Below, piece after piece: positions 2,415-17,295 of a stretch of DNA of 64,000 bases. A program made the position numbers and the translations under genes. Below the pieces are notes generated by a model that worked only from the letters and a program-made list of their open reading frames with translations, had not been told where the DNA came from and ran no database searches. Source of the stretch: Peptococcaceae bacterium (GTDB taxonomy: Bacteria; Bacillota; Desulfotomaculia; Desulfotomaculales; JACDOK01); NCBI GenBank assembly GCA_017656185.1, contig JACDOK010000001.1, positions 64,205 through 128,204 on the forward strand, written 5' to 3'. Position 1 is the first letter of the stretch, and every line of letters starts with the position of its first letter.

Positions 2415-3260
2415 TTAGGTAGTTTCTTTCTTCTGCTTGCCCTTCAAGTTTTGCGTGATACGGTCCAGAATAATGGCTACAATTACAATGGCGAGCCCGC
2501 TTTCAAATCCTCGCGGGACGTCTAAACGCTGCAAACCACGCAGCACCTCTCCCCCAAGTCCACCGGCCCCGATCATTGCCGCGATGACCACCATGGAAAG
2601 CGCCAGCATAATACACTGGTTGACACCGGCCATAATAGTCGGCAAAGCCAGGGGAAGCTGCACCTTGACAAGCATCTGGTTTCTTGTAGAACCGAATGCC
2701 TTGGCAGCCTCAATCAATTCCGCAGGCACCTGGCGGATGCCCAGCCCGGTCAACCTGATCACAGGCGGCATGGCAAAAATGATGGTGGCCACAAGGGCCG
2801 GTACCTCTCCGATGTCGAATAATAGTACTGCTGGTACAAGGTATACGAACGGCGGCATAGTCTGCATAAAATCGAGAATGGGGCGTACAATCCTATCGAC
2901 TATGTCACTCCAGGCCGTAAGAATACCAATAGGAATACCCACAATCAATGCCAGAAAAGCGGAGGACAAAACCAGGGCCAGCGTGCTCATTCCCGGGTCC
3001 CACATGTCGAGGTTGAGGATCAAAAGCAACCCCACACCCGTCCACAACGCAATTTTTCTATTGGCTAATAACCACACCAGAGCCATAAGTATTGCTATCA
3101 ATACCACCGGAGGCGGAAACAACAAGGCATTAGTAAAAGCTTGAATAACAGCCTCAATAACGTCACTCACAAATTCAAAGAACCCGCCGAAATAAGCGTC
3201 CAGAAACTCAACAAACGCCTCAACCCAGTCACCAATTGGAATTTTGGGGATTGCATCCAC
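2415..3260 (-). CDS. opuAB: Glycine betaine ABC transporter permease
   Basis: Multi-TM BPD-type permease. Its start overlaps the stop of the ATPase gene at 3260. Confidence 0.9.
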   Translation of the reverse strand: MDAIPKIPIGDWVEAFVEFLDAYFGGFFEFVSDVIEAVIQAFTNALLFPPPVVLIAILMALVWLLANRKIALWTGVGLLLILNLDMWDPGMSTLALVLSSAFLALIVGIPIGILTAWSDIVDRIVRPILDFMQTMPPFVYLVPAVLLFDIGEVPALVATIIFAMPPVIRLTGLGIRQVPAELIEAAKAFGSTRNQMLVKVQLPLALPTIMAGVNQCIMLALSMVVIAAMIGAGGLGGEVLRGLQRLDVPRGFESGLAIVIVAIILDRITQNLKGKQKKETT

Positions 3261-4519
3261 TATTCCTCATCCCCCTTTCTAACCATTCCGGCCAACAGGG
3301 CGCCACGCACGATAACACCAAGCAGTTTGTTATCGTCATTGACAACGGCTACGGGAAACTTGGATTCCGCCAGCACGGGAATAAGATCACTTACCGGCGT
3401 ATCCGGTTTTGCCGTGGGAACGTCAGTAATCAATATTTTGGACAAATCTTTCTCACCGCGTTCACGTGCTTCATAGGCGTCGTCGGCCGTGACGATGCCG
3501 GCCAGCTTCCGTTCCCGCGTTACCACAAAAATACTGGAGATCCCAGCCTCCCGCATCGCGCGTAAAGCCACCCGTGGACCCTCTTTAAGCGCTACCGTCT
3601 CCACGGGCGCTTTCATGACACCTTCGGCCACGAGAACTTTGGTCATATCCACGTCTTCCACAAACTTGCGGACATACTTGTTGGCCGGGTTGGTCAGGAT
3701 TTCTTCCGGCGTACCGATCTGGACGATATGCCCGTCCTTCATCAAAGCGATGCGGTCTCCGATGCGCAATGCCTCATCCAGGTCGTGGGTAACAAAGATG
3801 ATAGTCTTGTTAACCTTACTTTGGAGACTAAGCAGCTCGTTCTGCATTTCGCGGCGAATTAACGGGTCAAGCGCGCTAAAGGCCTCGTCCATCAGAAGAA
3901 TATCGGGGTCGTTTGCCAGTGCCCGCGCCAATCCCACGCGCTGCTGCATACCACCGCTGAGTTGGTCGGGAAGCGAGTTTTCCCATTGCTTGAGGCCTAC
4001 CATCTCCAATACTTTGCGTGCTCTTTCCAATCGTTCCTTTTCGTCGATACCTTGGATTTCCAAGCCAAAGGCGACATTATTGATTACCGTGCGGTGTGGG
4101 AAAAGAGCAAACCGCTGAAACACCATGCTGGCCTTTTTGCGCCGCAGTTCCAACAGGCCTTCCTCATCCAGGTCCACCACATTTTTACCGTCAATCAGGA
4201 TTTCACCGCTGGTAGGTTCAATCAAACGGTTTAGACAGCGCATTAAAGTGGACTTGCCACTACCCGACAGGCCCATTAAGACAAAAATCTCACCCTCGTC
4301 AACTTCGAAGCTGGCATTAGAAACCCCAACAGTCTGTCCGGTTTTCTCAAGGATCTCTTCTTTGGAGCACCCTTCCTCAATCAGTTTTAACGCCTTTTCA
4401 GGATGATCACCGAATATTTTGCTCAGGTTTCTAACAACAATCTTTTTTTGCACATTCTTACCTTTATCTGCTGACCTTTCTCCGGGGTGATCCAACCGTT
4501 CCTTATCTTGCTCTACCAT
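3260..4519 (-). CDS. opuAA: Glycine betaine ABC transporter ATP-binding protein with C-terminal tandem CBS domains
   Basis: Walker A GLSGSGKST, signature LSGGMQQR, Walker B ILLMDEAFS. The CBS pair lies in the last ~120 aa. Confidence 0.9.
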   Translation of the reverse strand: MVEQDKERLDHPGERSADKGKNVQKKIVVRNLSKIFGDHPEKALKLIEEGCSKEEILEKTGQTVGVSNASFEVDEGEIFVLMGLSGSGKSTLMRCLNRLIEPTSGEILIDGKNVVDLDEEGLLELRRKKASMVFQRFALFPHRTVINNVAFGLEIQGIDEKERLERARKVLEMVGLKQWENSLPDQLSGGMQQRVGLARALANDPDILLMDEAFSALDPLIRREMQNELLSLQSKVNKTIIFVTHDLDEALRIGDRIALMKDGHIVQIGTPEEILTNPANKYVRKFVEDVDMTKVLVAEGVMKAPVETVALKEGPRVALRAMREAGISSIFVVTRERKLAGIVTADDAYEARERGEKDLSKILITDVPTAKPDTPVSDLIPVLAESKFPVAVVNDDNKLLGVIVRGALLAGMVRKGDEE

Positions 4520-4605: not shown

Positions 4606-4619
4606 AGCCTGCACCCTCA

Positions 4620-4740
4620 CCAACGCTTACGAGGTTAGCTGACGGGCTCGGGCTGGAAAGTAGCCCTACCTGCTAGCACAAGCTGGATTCGCCCCACAGA
4701 TTGGTTCCCCCGCTCCCTCCAGTGAGAGACTCAGCGTATA
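4620..4740 (-). promoter_or_regulatory. c-di-AMP riboswitch (ydaO-yuaA class)
   Basis: Minus strand reads ACGCTGAGTC...GGAGGGAGCGGGGGAACCAATCTGTGGGGCGAATCC...GGTAGGGC...CCCGAGCCCGTCAGCTAACCTCGTAAGCGT. These blocks match the conserved ydaO blocks as I recall them from the B. subtilis element (GAGCGGGGGACCCA / GGGGUGAAUCC / GGUAGGGC / CCCGAACCCGUCAGCUAACCUCGUAAGCGU). Confidence 0.8.
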
Positions 4741-4923
4741 GATGCTAACTAATTATTCCACTTGTTTTTAAAGATCATGATATTATATGGCGGTTGTCTA
4801 ATATTTAAATGGTATCATATCCCAATTTACGTCGTCAAATCGCATCAGAAAAATTCAGCTTATTTTTACTTCAATAGATTTCGTCAGGCCCGTATCACAG
4901 CAAGTGCGATAGCACGCACGTAC

Positions 4924-12058: not shown

Positions 12059-13471
12059 TTATGCTTTCAACTGTGCGCCCGGCAAAGCCCGTTTCGGGCA
12101 TACATCACCGCACCGCAAACAAGTGATACACTCGCTGCTGTCTATAACCGGTAAGTTCGTTCCAGAGTCAACGTACCTAATGGCATTCATAGCACACGAG
12201 CCACGGGTGCAGAGCCCGCATCCCATGCACTTATGAGCATCCGGGCTGATTTTGCGCAGTGCTGTTTTGGACGTTAGAACGAGAACCGCCCCAAGAGGAC
12301 ACGCGTACCTGCAGAAAGGCCGTTCAATAAGCAGTGAAAATAAAAGCGTTGCGAGCAGAATAATGGTGGCAACAGCTGTACCTCGGAAATTAAAAAGCAC
12401 TTTAAAGGGTTCATAATCACCCCAGATATAAGTTCCGGTTGCCAGTGTAAGATAGCCAAATACTATAAGAACCACAAACTTAAGGTATTTCAGATATCTA
12501 TCCGCCTTATCGGGAACCCTTATGCGAAGTTTTCCGACATGAATGAACTCCTGTACAGCACCAAGCGGGCAGGTCCACCCGCAGAATACCCTTCCCCATA
12601 AAATGGAAATGGCCACCGGAATAATAAACAACCCTACCGCATTACCTAAAAACATACTGAATACGGCACCTACCGGGCCGGGACACCCTCCCAGATAAAA
12701 GCCCAAGACCATAACACTTAAAATTAACAGTGGTTTCCGCAGCTGTTCCAGCTTCAAAAGATAGAGGATTAGACCGGTAAGGATAAAACCGTACCACAAA
12801 TTGAAGTGTAAAGAGGTCGGGAAGATTTTTTCAAGCCGCGACTGGCCGGCCGCAGCAGCGCGCTCCATTTCGCCGGGCGGCACGCTCTCTGCCCTTTCAC
12901 CGTCAGTTGGAGGATTATACGAACTGCCGGGAATGTTACCTGGTGAGACGGGTGCAGGCGGGGCACCGCGCCTGTAGCCTCTCCGCCCTTTTCCCTTGGA
13001 GGCGTCACCTGCTTCATTTTCAGATCGTTCCTGCGTAGCAGGTTGTTTTTCTGATTCCGCTATCTGGGGCGAGGGTACGACTTCCGTTTGGCCCGAGGTC
13101 CCGTCCTGAGCAGCAAGAACGGTGCCTTTAGCCTCTATAACCATCAGGCCTTCCTTGTCACAATACCGCTCAACATGTACAACTGCTTCACCAGGATCGG
13201 TAAACTGCACCGTAAAGTTTAGAATGTCGGGATTCCCGGTTTGCCACGTACCGCGATCGGTAATTTCTCCACCGGTTACCTTTATGGATGTATCTTCCAA
13301 GGGTACGTCACACCGGCGGTGGGTTTGATACCTTTCCAGCTTAAAGGTAATTGTTTCATCTTTATCCACGGTAAAGGTACTTGGCGTTAATTCCATTTCA
13401 CATGCCAGCACTTTTCCGGGGGAAATAATGAAAAAAAGACATACCGCAAGCAATATAACGCCCTTTTTCAT
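12059..13471 (-). CDS. Membrane polyferredoxin-like 4Fe-4S binding protein with an extracytoplasmic N-terminal domain
   Basis: ATG at 13471 follows GAGGTG. Has a signal peptide, a low-complexity Gly/Pro/Arg linker, about 5 TM segments with CxxxCP motifs, and a C-terminal 2x[4Fe-4S] motif (CMGCGLCTRGSC ... CITCLRCGDVCP). Confidence 0.6.
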   Translation of the reverse strand: MKKGVILLAVCLFFIISPGKVLACEMELTPSTFTVDKDETITFKLERYQTHRRCDVPLEDTSIKVTGGEITDRGTWQTGNPDILNFTVQFTDPGEAVVHVERYCDKEGLMVIEAKGTVLAAQDGTSGQTEVVPSPQIAESEKQPATQERSENEAGDASKGKGRRGYRRGAPPAPVSPGNIPGSSYNPPTDGERAESVPPGEMERAAAAGQSRLEKIFPTSLHFNLWYGFILTGLILYLLKLEQLRKPLLILSVMVLGFYLGGCPGPVGAVFSMFLGNAVGLFIIPVAISILWGRVFCGWTCPLGAVQEFIHVGKLRIRVPDKADRYLKYLKFVVLIVFGYLTLATGTYIWGDYEPFKVLFNFRGTAVATIILLATLLFSLLIERPFCRYACPLGAVLVLTSKTALRKISPDAHKCMGCGLCTRGSCAMNAIRYVDSGTNLPVIDSSECITCLRCGDVCPKRALPGAQLKA

Positions 13472-13572
13472 CACAGCACCTCGCTGAAGTCCTCGGGGTT
13501 CTCCCATACATAGTACCGCAAAAATGTGTCCAAATAGTGAACAAGGCTGAAAAGTTTTTGACAAAACTTGTC

Positions 13573-13600
13573 TTGACGCCTTGTTGGAAGATTATATAAT
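13573..13600 (+). promoter_or_regulatory. Sigma-70-type promoter candidate (TTGACG-16 nt-TATAAT)
   Basis: TTGACG at 13573-13578 and TATAAT at 13595-13600. It lies about 370 nt upstream of the inositol-3-phosphate synthase start. Confidence 0.45.
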
Positions 13601-13655
13601 AAAATTAAAGAGGTATCGGATTGGTATTATCACCTTTTTGATTCTACGTTAAGTA

Positions 13656-13780
13656 GGGAGTGTTTATATTAAAGTAGGACAAAAACAGCAGATACTCATG
13701 TTGTCGTTGGCCAAGTTGTTCTTGTAATGGCTAAAGTCGGTAACACTCCCGATGAAAATATCGGGAGTTTTTCATTTTTT
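13656..13780 (+). promoter_or_regulatory. Leader with mutually exclusive antiterminator/terminator structures upstream of the DIP operon
   Basis: Terminator: ACTCCCGAT (13745-13753), 6-nt loop, ATCGGGAGT (13760-13768), then TTTTCATTTTTT. Upstream GGGAGTGTT (13656-13664) is perfectly complementary to AACACTCCC (13742-13750), which is the 5' arm of the terminator. Confidence 0.55.
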
Positions 13781-13968
13781 CAACACAATAGAAAGGGGGG
13801 ATCCACACAACCTGGACAACTGCCCGGAAACTTTCCTTTTGCCTTGCTCCAAGCTGTTTAATTTTAGCGGCCTGCAACCGTGGGCCCAACCTTCCATCAA
13901 CCCTACCGGCTTTACCTACAACATTTTCTACCATTTTTTAACTACAACTTAACAGAGGAGGGAACAAC

Positions 13969-15060
13969 ATGGGTAAAATAAACCTGGCCATTGCGGGTGT
14001 AGGTAACTGTGCCAGTGCGCTGCTCCAAGGCATTGAAATGTACAAAAACTCACCTGAGAATACCATCGGGCTGATGCACTATAACCTGGGCGGGTATACA
14101 CCCGGCGATATCAATGTCGTTGCTGCCTTCGACGTGGACAAGCGCAAAGTAGGGAAACCTCTTAAAGAGGCAATATTTGCCAAGCCGAACTGCACAAAGA
14201 TCTTCTACGAAAATTTACCGGACTATCCCGTCACCGTGCAAATGGGATCTGTTCTGGACGGCGTGTCTGAACACATGAGTGATTATGATGAAGACAAAAC
14301 ATTTATGGTCGCCGACCAAGAGCCCTGCGATGTAGTAAAAATACTTAAGGAAAGCGGTGCAGAAATCTTAATCAACTACCTGCCGGTGGGATCGGAAAAG
14401 GCGGCCCGGTTCTACGCCGAAGCGTGTCTGGAAGCCAATGTGGGCTTTATTAACGCCATGCCGGTCTTTATAGCCTCCGATGAGGAATGGGCCGAAAAGT
14501 TCCGGCGGAAAAACATTCCCATTATCGGTGACGATGTAAAAAGCCAGGTAGGAGCAACCATTGTCCACCGCACGCTGGCCAAGCTGTTTGAAAACCGTGG
14601 TGTTGTTCTCGATCGTACTTACCAGTTAAACTTCGGTGGGAACACTGACTTTTTGAATATGCTCAACCGCAGCCGGCTGAAATCCAAGAAAAAGTCAAAA
14701 ACCCAGGCCGTGCAGGCCGAACTGGAAACCCCGCTGGCTGCCGAAAACATCTATATCGGTCCCAGCGATTACGTGCCCTGGCTCAATGACAACAAAATCT
14801 GCCACATCCGGATGGAAGGAAGGGGCTTCGGCAACGTTCCACTGACACTGGATGTCAAGCTTTCCGTCGAGGACTCACCCAATAGCGGAGGCGTAACCAT
14901 CGACGCCATCCGGTGCATGAAGCTGGCTCTAGACCGGAAAATCGGTGGTGTACTCACCTCAATATCCGCCTATACTATGAAATCACCGCCCGTACAGTAT
15001 ACCGATACCGAAGCCAAGAAAATGGTAGAAGAATTCATCGCCGGCAGGAGGGAGAGGTAG
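13969..15060 (+). CDS. ino1: myo-Inositol-1-phosphate (inositol-3-phosphate) synthase
   Basis: 363 aa of the prokaryotic short type. N-terminal NAD-binding GKINLAIAGVGNCASALLQG. RBS GAGGAGGG. Confidence 0.85.
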   Translation: MGKINLAIAGVGNCASALLQGIEMYKNSPENTIGLMHYNLGGYTPGDINVVAAFDVDKRKVGKPLKEAIFAKPNCTKIFYENLPDYPVTVQMGSVLDGVSEHMSDYDEDKTFMVADQEPCDVVKILKESGAEILINYLPVGSEKAARFYAEACLEANVGFINAMPVFIASDEEWAEKFRRKNIPIIGDDVKSQVGATIVHRTLAKLFENRGVVLDRTYQLNFGGNTDFLNMLNRSRLKSKKKSKTQAVQAELETPLAAENIYIGPSDYVPWLNDNKICHIRMEGRGFGNVPLTLDVKLSVEDSPNSGGVTIDAIRCMKLALDRKIGGVLTSISAYTMKSPPVQYTDTEAKKMVEEFIAGRRER

Positions 15061-16391
15061 TGCGCGCGGTCATCCTCGCTGCCGGCGAAGGTAGGAGGCT
15101 AAGCCCGCACTTCAGCGGGCCCAAGCCTCTTGTCTCATTATTAGGCCTTTCTTTAATTGAGCGAAATATCCTTTCTTTGCGGGAATGCGGTATCAAAACC
15201 TTTACCATTATCACCGGCTGCTGCTCCGGTGAAATAGAAAGCTACCTGGGAGACGGAAGCAAGTACGGAGTAAATATCACCTACCTGCATAACTCCGACT
15301 GGAAACTGGGCAACGGCGTATCGGCATTTACCTTCCACAAAGATTACCGCGACGGAGAAAAATTTATTTTGACAATGTCCGACCATATTTTTGAACTCGA
15401 TGTCCTTAAATCCTTCCTAAAAAGCGCAGAAAATATAACAGAAGACGAAATTTTATTAGCTGCCGATACACGCCTGCAGGATGTTTTTGATTTAGCTGAG
15501 TGTACGAAAATAAAAGCAGAACAAGACCGTGCCGTTATACTCGGTAAAAACCTAAAGGACTTTAACGCCGTCGACTGTGGCCTTTTCGCCGGTACCAAAG
15601 CACTTTTACAAGCTCTTTCGGAAGCAATTTCCCAATCCCGCTACGCTCTTACCGACACCGTGAATATCCTGGCCGCCCGGCGCCGGGTGAAACTGCACTT
15701 TATAGACGGTTTTTGGGTTGATGTGGACGATCTTCCCAGTTACCGGTATGCCGAAAAAGTTCTCCTTAAGTCCCTGGTACCACCCAAAGACGGTATCGTC
15801 TCCCGTGTCTTAAACCGGAAGGTTTCACTTAAAATAACAAAGGTTTTAGCCCGTACCGGCATTACACCCAATCAGGTAACCTTCTTGTCTTTTTTAATTT
15901 CCTCAGTCTCAGCGGCCCTGTTCGCCGCCGCGTACCCGCTGCTTGGGGGGCTTTTAGCCCAGCTGAGTTCGATTATCGACGGGGTAGATGGCGAAATTGC
16001 CCGTCTCAAATTCCAAAAAAGCAATTACGGAGCGCTCTTTGATGCCATTTTGGACCGCTATGCCGATTTTTTGATCGTTTTGGGCATGGCCTATGCCTGG
16101 TATTCGGCGGCACCAAGTCTTCCCGTCCTGCTGGTATGCGCGGCCGCGCTGACCGGGCTGCCCTTATCCATGCTGCTCAAAGAAAAATTCCATGCCCTGA
16201 CCGGCAGGCCCTTTATACCCGAATCCCACGACGGCATCTTTCGCTACCTGCCGGCCAACCGCGACGGGCGACTGTTCATTATCATGCTGGGCGGTATTTT
16301 CAATTTGATACCCCTCACCCTTATTGTCCTTGGCGCAATCACGCACATCCAGGCCCTGGTACGCCTTTATAACGCCCGTAAATTAATGTAA
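15060..16391 (+). CDS. Bifunctional CTP:inositol-1-phosphate cytidylyltransferase / di-myo-inositol-phosphate-phosphate synthase (IPCT/DIPPS)
   Basis: GTG at 15060 overlaps the ino1 TAG by 1 nt. N-terminal nucleotidyltransferase motif AVILAAGEGRRL. The C-terminal half has about 6 TM segments and an exact CDP-alcohol phosphotransferase signature, DGEIAR-x8-G-x3-D-x3-D (DGVDGEIARLKFQKSNYGALFDAILDRYAD). Confidence 0.75.
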   Translation: MRAVILAAGEGRRLSPHFSGPKPLVSLLGLSLIERNILSLRECGIKTFTIITGCCSGEIESYLGDGSKYGVNITYLHNSDWKLGNGVSAFTFHKDYRDGEKFILTMSDHIFELDVLKSFLKSAENITEDEILLAADTRLQDVFDLAECTKIKAEQDRAVILGKNLKDFNAVDCGLFAGTKALLQALSEAISQSRYALTDTVNILAARRRVKLHFIDGFWVDVDDLPSYRYAEKVLLKSLVPPKDGIVSRVLNRKVSLKITKVLARTGITPNQVTFLSFLISSVSAALFAAAYPLLGGLLAQLSSIIDGVDGEIARLKFQKSNYGALFDAILDRYADFLIVLGMAYAWYSAAPSLPVLLVCAAALTGLPLSMLLKEKFHALTGRPFIPESHDGIFRYLPANRDGRLFIIMLGGIFNLIPLTLIVLGAITHIQALVRLYNARKLM

Positions 16392-16395
16392 AACA

Positions 16396-17295
16396 TCATC
16401 CCACCGCGCCTCCTCCGCCGGTACCACTACCGGCACTCTCGACGCAGGGTACAGCGCGTCTTTTGGTAAAAACATGGTTGCACAAGCCAAACTCCTCCAG
16501 CAAGGCCAGGGCCTCATCAATATGGTCTCCCAAATCCTCCGGGGAGTGCGCGTCGGAGCCGACAGTGAAAATCGTAACTCCTGCTTCTACCGCCAGGGAA
16601 ATTATTTCCCGCGAAGGGTGAAACTCCTTTACCCCCCTGCGCAAACTGGAGGTGTTTATCTCCAGCCCCATATTCCTTCGCGCCATCTCCTTTAAAATGG
16701 GCTCGATAACCCCGCGGTGAACGGTTAAAATTTCCGAGCCGTAGTGCTTTATCCCGTATCTCTTGTAAAGGTCCAGGTGGGCTATACAATCAAAAAAGCC
16801 GGTATTAACGGCCTCCCGGAGGGTAGTAAAGTAATCCTCCCGAACTTCAGCCGGGCTCCGGGAGGCAAAATACTGCGGGCTTTCCATCATGGAAGATATT
16901 GCAATGTGGTCGAGACAATGTATGGCTCCCAGTACGAAATCAAAAGGATAATCCTTTAAAACTCTTTCGATCTCTCTTTCTAGGCCGATATCATACCCGA
17001 CTTCTATGCCGGCTTTCACCTTTAAACCCGTATCCTTAAACTCCCGCTGTGCATCCTCAATTTCTTTAAAATAAGCCTCAAGCCACATCAGGTCGTGGGC
17101 CGGATGCCTTTTACCGTCAAGGATGACAAAATTATCTATGTCGCGCCGCACGGGGTCAAATTCAAAGTGAGTCGTAAAACAAATCTCCCTAAGCCCCAAC
17201 TCAACCGCCCGGCGGCAGTAATCCCTTATTTCAACCGGAGAAGCATCTATGGAATAACCCGGGTGCACGTGGTAGTCGGTCCTTACGGATTTCAC
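16396..17295 (-). CDS. PHP-domain phosphatase, histidinol-phosphatase (HisJ) family
   Basis: N-terminal DYHVHPGYSIDA, with further His/Asp metal ligands (HCLDH, AHLD, GSDAH). Confidence 0.7.
   Translation of the reverse strand: MKSVRTDYHVHPGYSIDASPVEIRDYCRRAVELGLREICFTTHFEFDPVRRDIDNFVILDGKRHPAHDLMWLEAYFKEIEDAQREFKDTGLKVKAGIEVGYDIGLEREIERVLKDYPFDFVLGAIHCLDHIAISSMMESPQYFASRSPAEVREDYFTTLREAVNTGFFDCIAHLDLYKRYGIKHYGSEILTVHRGVIEPILKEMARRNMGLEINTSSLRRGVKEFHPSREIISLAVEAGVTIFTVGSDAHSPEDLGDHIDEALALLEEFGLCNHVFTKRRAVPCVESAGSGTGGGGAVG

Follow-up and report, generated by a model that had tools for sequence, protein, structure and literature searches.

A conserved candidate transcription attenuator upstream of the di-myo-inositol phosphate operon in thermophilic Bacillota

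The ino1 leader and its conservation

We examined positions 13573-13780 of a 64,000-nt stretch of DNA (hereafter, the window) from contig JACDOK010000001.1 of a Peptococcaceae bacterium. The segment lies upstream of ino1, the first regulated gene, which encodes myo-inositol-1-phosphate synthase (MIPS) and is followed by a gene for a fused IPCT/DIPPS protein (Table 1). The Pfam matches of the two products confirmed the operon for di-myo-inositol phosphate (DIP) proposed in a preliminary description of this DNA. DIP is the signature heat-stress solute of hyperthermophiles. The MIPS of the window was 100% identical to a protein of a 'Peptococcaceae bacterium' metagenome-assembled genome (MAG). 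Its homologues at an identity of at least 83% numbered more than 120, every one in Bacillota, and included proteins from Peptococcaceae, Desulfotomaculum, Syntrophomonadaceae, Thermacetogeniaceae, Zhaonellaceae, and Caldalkalibacillus.

The near-consensus promoter TTGACG-16-TATAAT, which had been placed about 370 nt upstream of ino1, was found with its -10 element 368 nt from the ATG (13969) and 145 nt from the stem of a strong intrinsic terminator, as had also been described. The stem had been given as 9 bp; we found 10 pairs at 13745-13768, formed by the arms ACTCCCGATG and TATCGGGAGT around a 4-nt loop and followed by TTTTCATTTTTT. Further upstream, GGGAGTGTT (13656-13664; antiterminator strand, seg2) was the exact reverse complement of AACACTCCC (13742-13750; shared target strand, seg3), in agreement with the 9-nt complementarity noticed before. 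Runs of 9 or more Watson-Crick pairs with the terminator arm were obtained in about 0.4-0.5% of leader shuffles (1023/200000 and 7/2000), and the fold of the promoter-to-terminator unit was more stable than those of shuffled sequences (z -2.5). The upstream gene of the window encodes a Fer4 protein and lies divergently on the minus strand; therefore, no plus-strand gene needs the terminator at 13745-13780, as the preliminary description had stated.

Subsequently, the leader was compared among 17 distinct ino1 loci of thermophilic Bacillota, nearly all metagenomic and including that of Caldalkalibacillus thermarum TA2.A1, located at around 448.9-449.2 kb of CP082237.1. Scans of genomes and metagenomes for MIPS gave only three close relatives (L001, L081, and L082), and L161-L181 were obtained by exact-protein look-up. 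The order promoter, leader, terminator, and ino1 was observed in 16 of the 17 loci. The promoter of the related loci was of the sigma-70 type (10-12 of 12 positions matched) and lay 265-560 nt upstream of ino1, and the intrinsic terminator was located 80-350 nt ahead of the start codon in 16/17. Between terminator and ino1, no sigma-70-like promoter was detected in any of the 15 loci scanned, a result that does not exclude promoters for other sigma factors. The operon must therefore be transcribed through the terminator.

The complementarity was conserved as well. An upstream GGRAGUG segment (seg2) was complementary to the terminator 5' arm (seg3, ..CACUYCC..) over 7-14 contiguous pairs in 15 of the 17 loci, and in 12 of the 15 loci tested individually, the arm had its longest Watson-Crick complement in seg2 (p<0.025). 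In a curated alignment, 79% of the antiterminator cells paired, compared with 41-48% when the partners were slid. One position of the antiterminator core was G-C in 11 loci and A-U in four (GGGAG/CUCCC to GGAAG/CUUCC) and was never broken; further changes were U-A to C-G in L163 and A-U to G.U in L178. The terminator stem ACUCCC/GGGAGU was conserved across loci, and its observed pairing score was reached by 0 of 500 shuffles. When the pattern composed of seg2, seg3, seg4, and a T-run was searched for, the only matches were the ino1 leaders of Bacillota; 158 further MIPS loci, which were more distant, had no match on either strand.

A covariance model was built from seven loci of type A, one of the two leader forms described below, with the window left out, and was searched in 430 kb. 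It matched window positions 13650-13783 over model positions 1-135 with 96 bits (E 9.8e-15), and there was no other match below E 0.05. Because a model built without the window recovered the element, the element belongs to a conserved family.

Rfam searches agreed with the earlier statement that the sequence was not recognised as any known riboswitch class. For positions 13400-14100, only noise was obtained at E up to 10, at 14-15 bits where the gathering scores are 55-78. No match at E up to 1 was obtained for the leaders of L001, L081, and L082, and nothing was found at the leader when the whole window was searched at the gathering threshold. A scan for tRNA and tmRNA found none. Within the 64-kb window there was no second copy of GGGAGTG...CACTCCC or of the motifs of the mid-domain (13700-13744), nor a target-like complement; hence these 64 kb gave no indication of a regulon.

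Taken together, the leader family at ino1 of thermophilic Bacillota is real, conserved, and uncatalogued in Rfam, and its mechanistic kind is already known. The locus has what is expected of an attenuator at the sequence level, namely a promoter, a terminator with a U-tract within the 5' untranslated region (UTR), a conserved antiterminator, and no sigma-70-like promoter of ino1's own. The leader is thus very probably a cis-acting transcription attenuator, and the terminator/antiterminator layout that the preliminary description had seen in a single sequence is supported across the family.

Table 1 Features of the ino1 leader and the DIP operon in the window
Feature	Position	Strand	Remarks
Sigma-70-type promoter TTGACG-16-TATAAT	13573..13600	+	11/12 consensus positions
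Weak 5' hairpin, predicted (AUCGGA..GGU...ACC..UUUGAU)	13615..13642	+	minimum-energy and centroid folds
Antiterminator strand seg2, GGGAGUGUU	13656..13664	+	perfect complement of 13742-13750
Possible weak partner sequestering seg2, AGAUACUC	13690..13697	+	pairs with GAGUGUUU at 13658-13665 in the full-length minimum-energy fold
Type A mid-domain	13700..13744	+	RNAalifold consensus; within the 96-bit covariance-model match
Shared target strand seg3, AACACUCCC	13742..13750	+	pairs with seg2, or (13745-13754) with 13759-13768
Intrinsic terminator	13745..13780	+	terminator scan; stem 13745-13754/13759-13768, loop AAAA, U-rich tail 13769-13780
Rest of the ino1 5' UTR	13781..13968	+	no promoter-like site in it
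Purine box AAAGGGGGGAU	13792-13802	+	conserved in type A loci
CU-rich CCUUCC	13890-13895	+	could pair with the ino1 Shine-Dalgarno sequence
Shine-Dalgarno sequence GAGGAGGG	13955-13962	+	part of the ino1 5' UTR
ino1 (MIPS)	13969..15060	+	Pfam Inos-1-P_synth, E 6.8e-37
Fused IPCT/DIPPS gene	15060..16391	+	Pfam NTP_transferase and CDP-OH_P_transf; start inferred from 443-aa orthologues

The surroundings of the leader differed from locus to locus on one side only. Products encoded by the gene 5' of it included a peptidase, a histidine kinase, TyrS, a cation-efflux protein, and a mechanosensitive channel. The fused IPCT/DIPPS gene directly followed ino1 in all related loci, and this pair, usually together with a convergent PHP-domain gene, made up the constant neighbours; no regulator gene was conserved beside the operon in the related loci compared. 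The PHP-domain gene of the window (16396-17295, minus strand) converges on ipct/dipps, as do those of L161, L162, L165, L167, L170, and L176, and its product may represent the DIP-phosphate phosphatase still missing from the pathway. Elsewhere in the window, the 28-mer TTCGATATCGGTCGCTGGTACAACTTCT was present in two identical copies (at about 46596 and 52033, minus strand, about 5.4 kb apart), which indicates a duplicated gene or a repeat element.

Two forms of the leader

The leaders fell into two forms. Type A comprised the window, L161, L162, L173, L163, L167, and L180, with L174 as a short variant, and type B comprised L001, L081, L082, L165, L168, L170, and L176.

Type A leaders contain a GU-rich mid-domain, which borders directly on the terminator and shares 3 nt with the antiterminator target. 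Its outer helix is formed by GUCGUUG (13703-13709) or GUUGUCG (13700-13706) with CGGUAAC (13738-13744), and its inner hairpin by AGUUGUU (13714-13720) with AAUGGCU (13726-13732). Over seven loci, 92.8% of the mid-domain cells paired, compared with 32-53% when the partners were slid. Four pairs showed double changes, a result reached by 2 of 500 shuffles.

In type B, a hairpin has seg2 as its 3' end, a 5' arm starting with CUUCU, and a body of TTAA/TTGA-like repeats, from 8 bp to more than 100 nt in length. The pairs of these hairpins are nearly all A-U or G.U, with 2-11 G.U pairs in each. On the sense strand they were 6-26 kcal/mol more stable and 2-11 G.U pairs richer than on the antisense strand (for example, -39.8 vs -13.7, -26.6 vs -9.4, and -18.2 vs -3.7 kcal/mol). 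A palindrome or operator at the DNA level, considered for these AT-rich repeats, was therefore rejected in favour of an RNA helix. Since this hairpin sequesters seg2, type B shows the full 1:2 / 2:3 / 3:4 logic of an attenuator.

Additional hairpins were observed in some relatives. A second hairpin common to type B, CGTTTTGAAA...TTTCAAAACG, is located 30-40 nt ahead of the ino1 Shine-Dalgarno sequence (about 2924-2961 in L001, with equivalent sites in L165, L168, and L170). The Zhaonellaceae leaders L176-L179 carry three tandem terminator-like hairpins at about 2244-2390, all with GGGAGU 3' arms; the first of them is the seg1:seg2 hairpin and is followed by a U-run.

Just past the terminator, a purine box (AAAGGGGGGAT) had conserved counterparts (AAGGAGGGAT or AAGGAGGTG) in type A loci and in L176. 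A small open reading frame (ORF) after this box was considered and rejected, because the window and L161 have ATC in place of ATG and because the G-run follows at a spacing of 0-2 nt. The Shine-Dalgarno region of ino1 was predicted to be paired with a probability (P) of 0.94 at 37 °C and 0.57 at 70 °C; this pairing may provide a second, translational layer of control.

Heat as the candidate signal and the alternative explanations

In the organisms studied, heat and osmotic stress lead to the accumulation of DIP (PMC4473059), and the preliminary description considered a cis-acting sensor of either stress plausible. The relatives provided indirect support for heat. In nine of them, a CIRCE-like operator of HrcA (consensus TTAGCACTC-N9-GAGTGCTAA; PMC7464140) was found immediately downstream of the -10 element in the ino1 promoter, eight by a scan at up to 4 mismatches and a near-perfect one, in L180, by eye. 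The operators lie at 2218-2244 in L174 (C. thermarum TA2.A1), 668-694 in L180, 2712 in L001, 2733 in L082, 2256 in L165, 2150 in L167, 2266 in L168, 2184 in L170, and 2196 in L176, and thus accompany both leader types. Their presence points to DIP synthesis as a member of the HrcA heat-shock regulon of thermophilic Bacillota. The closest group of the window (window, L161, L162, L173, and L163) has lost the operator.

CIRCE was also seen at two more distant loci. L043, a Thermotogae MAG, carries one with 2 mismatches at 2472-2498, about 415 nt upstream of MIPS, where it may control either MIPS or a small intervening ORF. In L069, a Fischerbacteria MAG, a perfect CIRCE at 2601 was rejected as evidence for ino1 control, since it belongs to a divergent operon of groES/groEL-like genes; tandem GGGGATTAGGGACTGG-like repeats lie between this operon and MIPS at about 2650-2765.

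The second indication came from folding predictions at different temperatures, using transcripts ending just before the terminator 3' arm. A switch was predicted in five type B loci (L082, L165, L170, L001, and L081). Up to 45 °C, seg2 was held in the 1:2 hairpin with P 0.8-1.0, and in three of the five this sequestration still had P of at least 0.95 at 55 °C. At 65-75 °C, the antiterminator state was predicted with P 0.3-0.9.

As for osmotic stress, the sole Rfam match of the whole window at the gathering score was a cyclic di-AMP (c-di-AMP; ydaO-type) riboswitch at 4609-4746 on the minus strand (96 bits). It sits upstream of the genes for an osmoprotectant ABC (ATP-binding cassette) transporter resembling OpuA (3260-4519 and 2415-3260, both on the minus strand), which consists of an ATPase with two CBS domains and a permease. 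Osmotic uptake in this genome therefore has a separate, different RNA switch. Osmotic signalling is thus served by a switch other than the ino1 leader, and we counted this for heat.

From these observations we infer that read-through is regulated, with temperature as the signal. Judging from the promoter sequence, transcription would start near 13607. In the OFF fold, the mid-domain stem-loop (13700-13744) would stack on the terminator hairpin (13745-13768 plus the U-tail), and RNA polymerase would stop about 190 nt ahead of ino1. In the ON fold, which would be mutually exclusive with the former, seg2 would pair with seg3 and take the terminator 5' arm, leading to read-through into ino1. At normal temperature, weak helices would stop the antiterminator strand from winning; in the window these would be the 13658-65/13690-97 pairing and the GU-rich mid-domain. 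At supra-optimal temperature they would melt, and the GC-richer antiterminator would form before the terminator 3' arm is made. For the family as a whole, the melting AU/GU helix would be the TTAA-like repeat hairpin of type B or the mid-domain and weak pairings of type A. The antiterminator strand thus freed would capture the terminator 5' arm, and the operon for the thermoprotectant DIP would be read through.

Several observations weigh against heat as the signal, and some against attenuation itself. The window had no CIRCE at up to 3 mismatches, and control by a heat-shock operator is therefore not claimable for the window itself. It also lacks an AU-rich hairpin 5' of seg2. Its candidate sequestering helices are weak and poorly conserved: the 5' hairpin at 13615-13642 had a predicted stability of -6.5 kcal/mol at 37 °C, which had dropped to 0 by 60 °C, with a sequence only loosely kept among the closest relatives, and the helix 13658-13665/13690-13697 had -5.3 kcal/mol at 37 °C and was lost by 65 °C. 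Although these helices melt near 60-65 °C, no switch was predicted, and the truncated transcript of the window formed the antiterminator at every temperature (P 0.90-0.99). L174 and L176 were also without a predicted switch. The energy gap between antiterminator and terminator in full-length transcripts narrowed with temperature in all loci, a generic and uninformative behaviour, and nearest-neighbour energies extrapolated to 65-75 °C are rough.

With regard to attenuation, the AT-rich locus L169 has the promoter without the terminator and the element, and L180 keeps the promoter, CIRCE, the mid-domain, and the terminator but only about four antiterminator pairs. Pair counts supported the mid-domain and the terminator, but covariation was statistically weak in the antiterminator, where 121 of 500 column shuffles reached the observed score. 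This test was not significant because the core is nearly invariant, and the structural claim is accordingly based less on numerous independent compensatory changes than on the conservation of the complementarity. The loci with GGAAG may in addition be one single clade.

Considering both sides, we give a rough probability of 0.45 to the complete statement that 13573-13780 is the promoter and attenuating leader of ino1-ipct/dipps with heat as its signal. Direct sensing of heat by the RNA is a tentative proposal, ranked first among the signals with the same reserve. The earlier suggestion of stress sensing gains support for heat only indirectly, through CIRCE and the heat-labile hairpins of relatives, features that the window is without. 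Still more doubtful is the broadest form of the idea, in which the family would be a natural RNA thermometer acting on transcription termination in series with HrcA/CIRCE, so that DIP synthesis would be doubly heat-gated.

The serious rival for type A is an ON switch that depends on a factor. Here, seg2:seg3 would act as P1, the helix that closes a sensor domain including the mid-domain. This domain would be made more or less stable by a metabolite or an RNA-binding protein, which would thereby select antiterminator or terminator, in the manner of the pbuE adenine riboswitch or of protein-dependent antitermination, and the signal could be osmotic or metabolic rather than thermal. The almost invariant strand AGUUGUU of the mid-domain and its conserved layout beside the terminator are consistent with such a domain, as is the finding that no thermal switch was predicted for the window. 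In addition, the antiterminator and terminator helices of the window have nearly the same predicted stability (-15.4 vs -13.9 kcal/mol, the latter at 37 °C), and 4 bp of the terminator (GAUG/UAUC) stay free of the antiterminator as a toehold, so that a factor with a stabilising role would be reasonable. However, very few nucleotides outside the helices are both unpaired and conserved, and the linker from seg2 to the mid-domain is A-rich, variable, and 35-60 nt long, unlike a metabolite pocket. The type B relatives, with their repeat hairpins of freely differing size, are entirely without the mid-domain. Neither a conserved regulator gene next to the operon nor an Rfam match, protein-binding leaders included, was found. 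We consider this switch unlikely, even though it is the strongest of the alternatives.

A constitutive terminator that merely damps expression is improbable. In that case, the upstream copy GGGAGUGUU would be a relic of a duplicated terminator half, and control would lie solely at the promoter (HrcA/CIRCE in the relatives) or in translation. Such an origin would fit the U-rich tract that follows seg2 in several loci, like that of a terminator 3' arm, and the three terminator-like hairpins in a row in L176; the loss of complementarity in L180, which kept its terminator, and the non-significant shuffle control of the antiterminator point the same way. On the other hand, the leader on either side of seg2 is too divergent to be aligned between the two types, and yet seg2 remained the best complement in 12/15 loci and followed the GGGAG/GGAAG change of the terminator. 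The stem sequence is also unusually conserved for a plain terminator, and a strong terminator without escape would silence an operon that has no other promoter.

Even less probable is an independent, trans-acting small RNA (sRNA) of about 170 nt, with ino1 transcribed from a separate, unrecognised promoter. Terminated leaders can double as sRNAs, and here a near-consensus promoter and a strong terminator bound a discrete unit with a stable fold. A free-standing sRNA, which the preliminary description had left as an alternative, is disfavoured relative to a cis-acting leader mainly because no promoter of its own was detected for ino1, the scan for sigma-70-like sites between terminator and ino1 having been negative in 15/15 loci. 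Moreover, irrespective of which gene precedes it, the unit invariably adjoined ino1 on the upstream side and shared its orientation, and the window contained neither a second copy nor a target-like complement. Finally, ribosome-mediated attenuation by a leader peptide (window candidate ORF 13699-13728, MLSLAKLFL*) was rejected: in L161, L162, and L163, reading one frame across the mid-domain yields Leu-rich peptides with loose similarity and a terminal LPI, but no Shine-Dalgarno sequence precedes the ATG of the window, early stop codons occur in the window and L173, neither frame nor length is conserved, the TTGTT-to-CTCCC spacing of 22-25 nt across loci is not a multiple of 3, and the G.U-preserving changes fit RNA pairing.

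Significance and comparison with known systems

The regulation of DIP synthesis in bacteria is essentially undescribed in the searchable literature, in which we also found no paper linking DIP with CIRCE, HrcA, a riboswitch, or Pelotomaculum. The locus offers a concrete and conserved regulatory element for this pathway. Because the culturable C. thermarum TA2.A1 carries the CIRCE operator and the attenuator together, the full arrangement is directly testable; the heat-responsive attenuator predicts that read-through rises with temperature and depends on the GGGAGUG strand. If this is true, the leader would be the first natural thermosensor working via a transcription terminator, and a compatible-solute pathway would join the HrcA heat-shock regulon. 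If the signal is a ligand or a protein, the leader would still be a new class absent from Rfam.

The attenuator logic itself has precedents in the trp-type alternation of 1:2 / 2:3 / 3:4 helices and, as an ON switch, in the pbuE adenine riboswitch. As in classical attenuators and transcriptional riboswitch platforms (PMC10573289), the ino1 element lies in a 5' leader in which the terminator 5' arm can alternatively pair with an upstream strand, and the third strand of type B, which sequesters the antiterminator, completes the same three-helix logic. The ino1 leader differs from these systems in having no leader peptide, recognisable aptamer, known binding protein, or Rfam match, and the sequestering element of type B differs in that it is AU/GU-rich and varies freely in length.

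In the heat-shock operons controlled by CIRCE and HrcA (groES and dnaK), the inverted repeat is placed as in the nine relatives, where it overlaps the ino1 transcript start; the window differs in having no CIRCE. No compatible-solute operon is known as an HrcA target in the searchable literature.

The nearest composite analogue was found in the glpF and glpT leaders of Bacillus subtilis (PMC10573289). These have the same layout of a terminator followed by a structured 5' UTR that possibly hides the Shine-Dalgarno sequence, and within positions 13781-13968 of the window the Shine-Dalgarno region is likewise predicted to be paired. They differ in that the GlpP protein controls the terminator and the thermometer acts on translation (PMC10573289), and they share no sequence similarity with the ino1 leader.

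RNA thermometers such as ROSE and fourU resemble the type B leaders in their A-U/G.U helices, predicted to melt in the physiological range, and are likewise associated with heat-stress genes. The natural RNA thermometers known as of 2016 all act on translation initiation by hiding the Shine-Dalgarno sequence or the AUG (PMC4914106), and a search of the accessible literature, which was not exhaustive, gave no later natural example acting on a terminator. The ino1 element differs in lying about 190 nt upstream of the Shine-Dalgarno sequence, and its labile helix would control a transcription terminator. Engineered temperature-responsive transcription terminators exist (Rossmanith, Weskamp and Narberhaus 2018, as cited in PMC9611254). 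As far as that citation describes them, the concept is the same, in that temperature decides on the terminator hairpin; those devices are synthetic, whereas the ino1 leader would be natural and conserved and would operate through an antiterminator relay.

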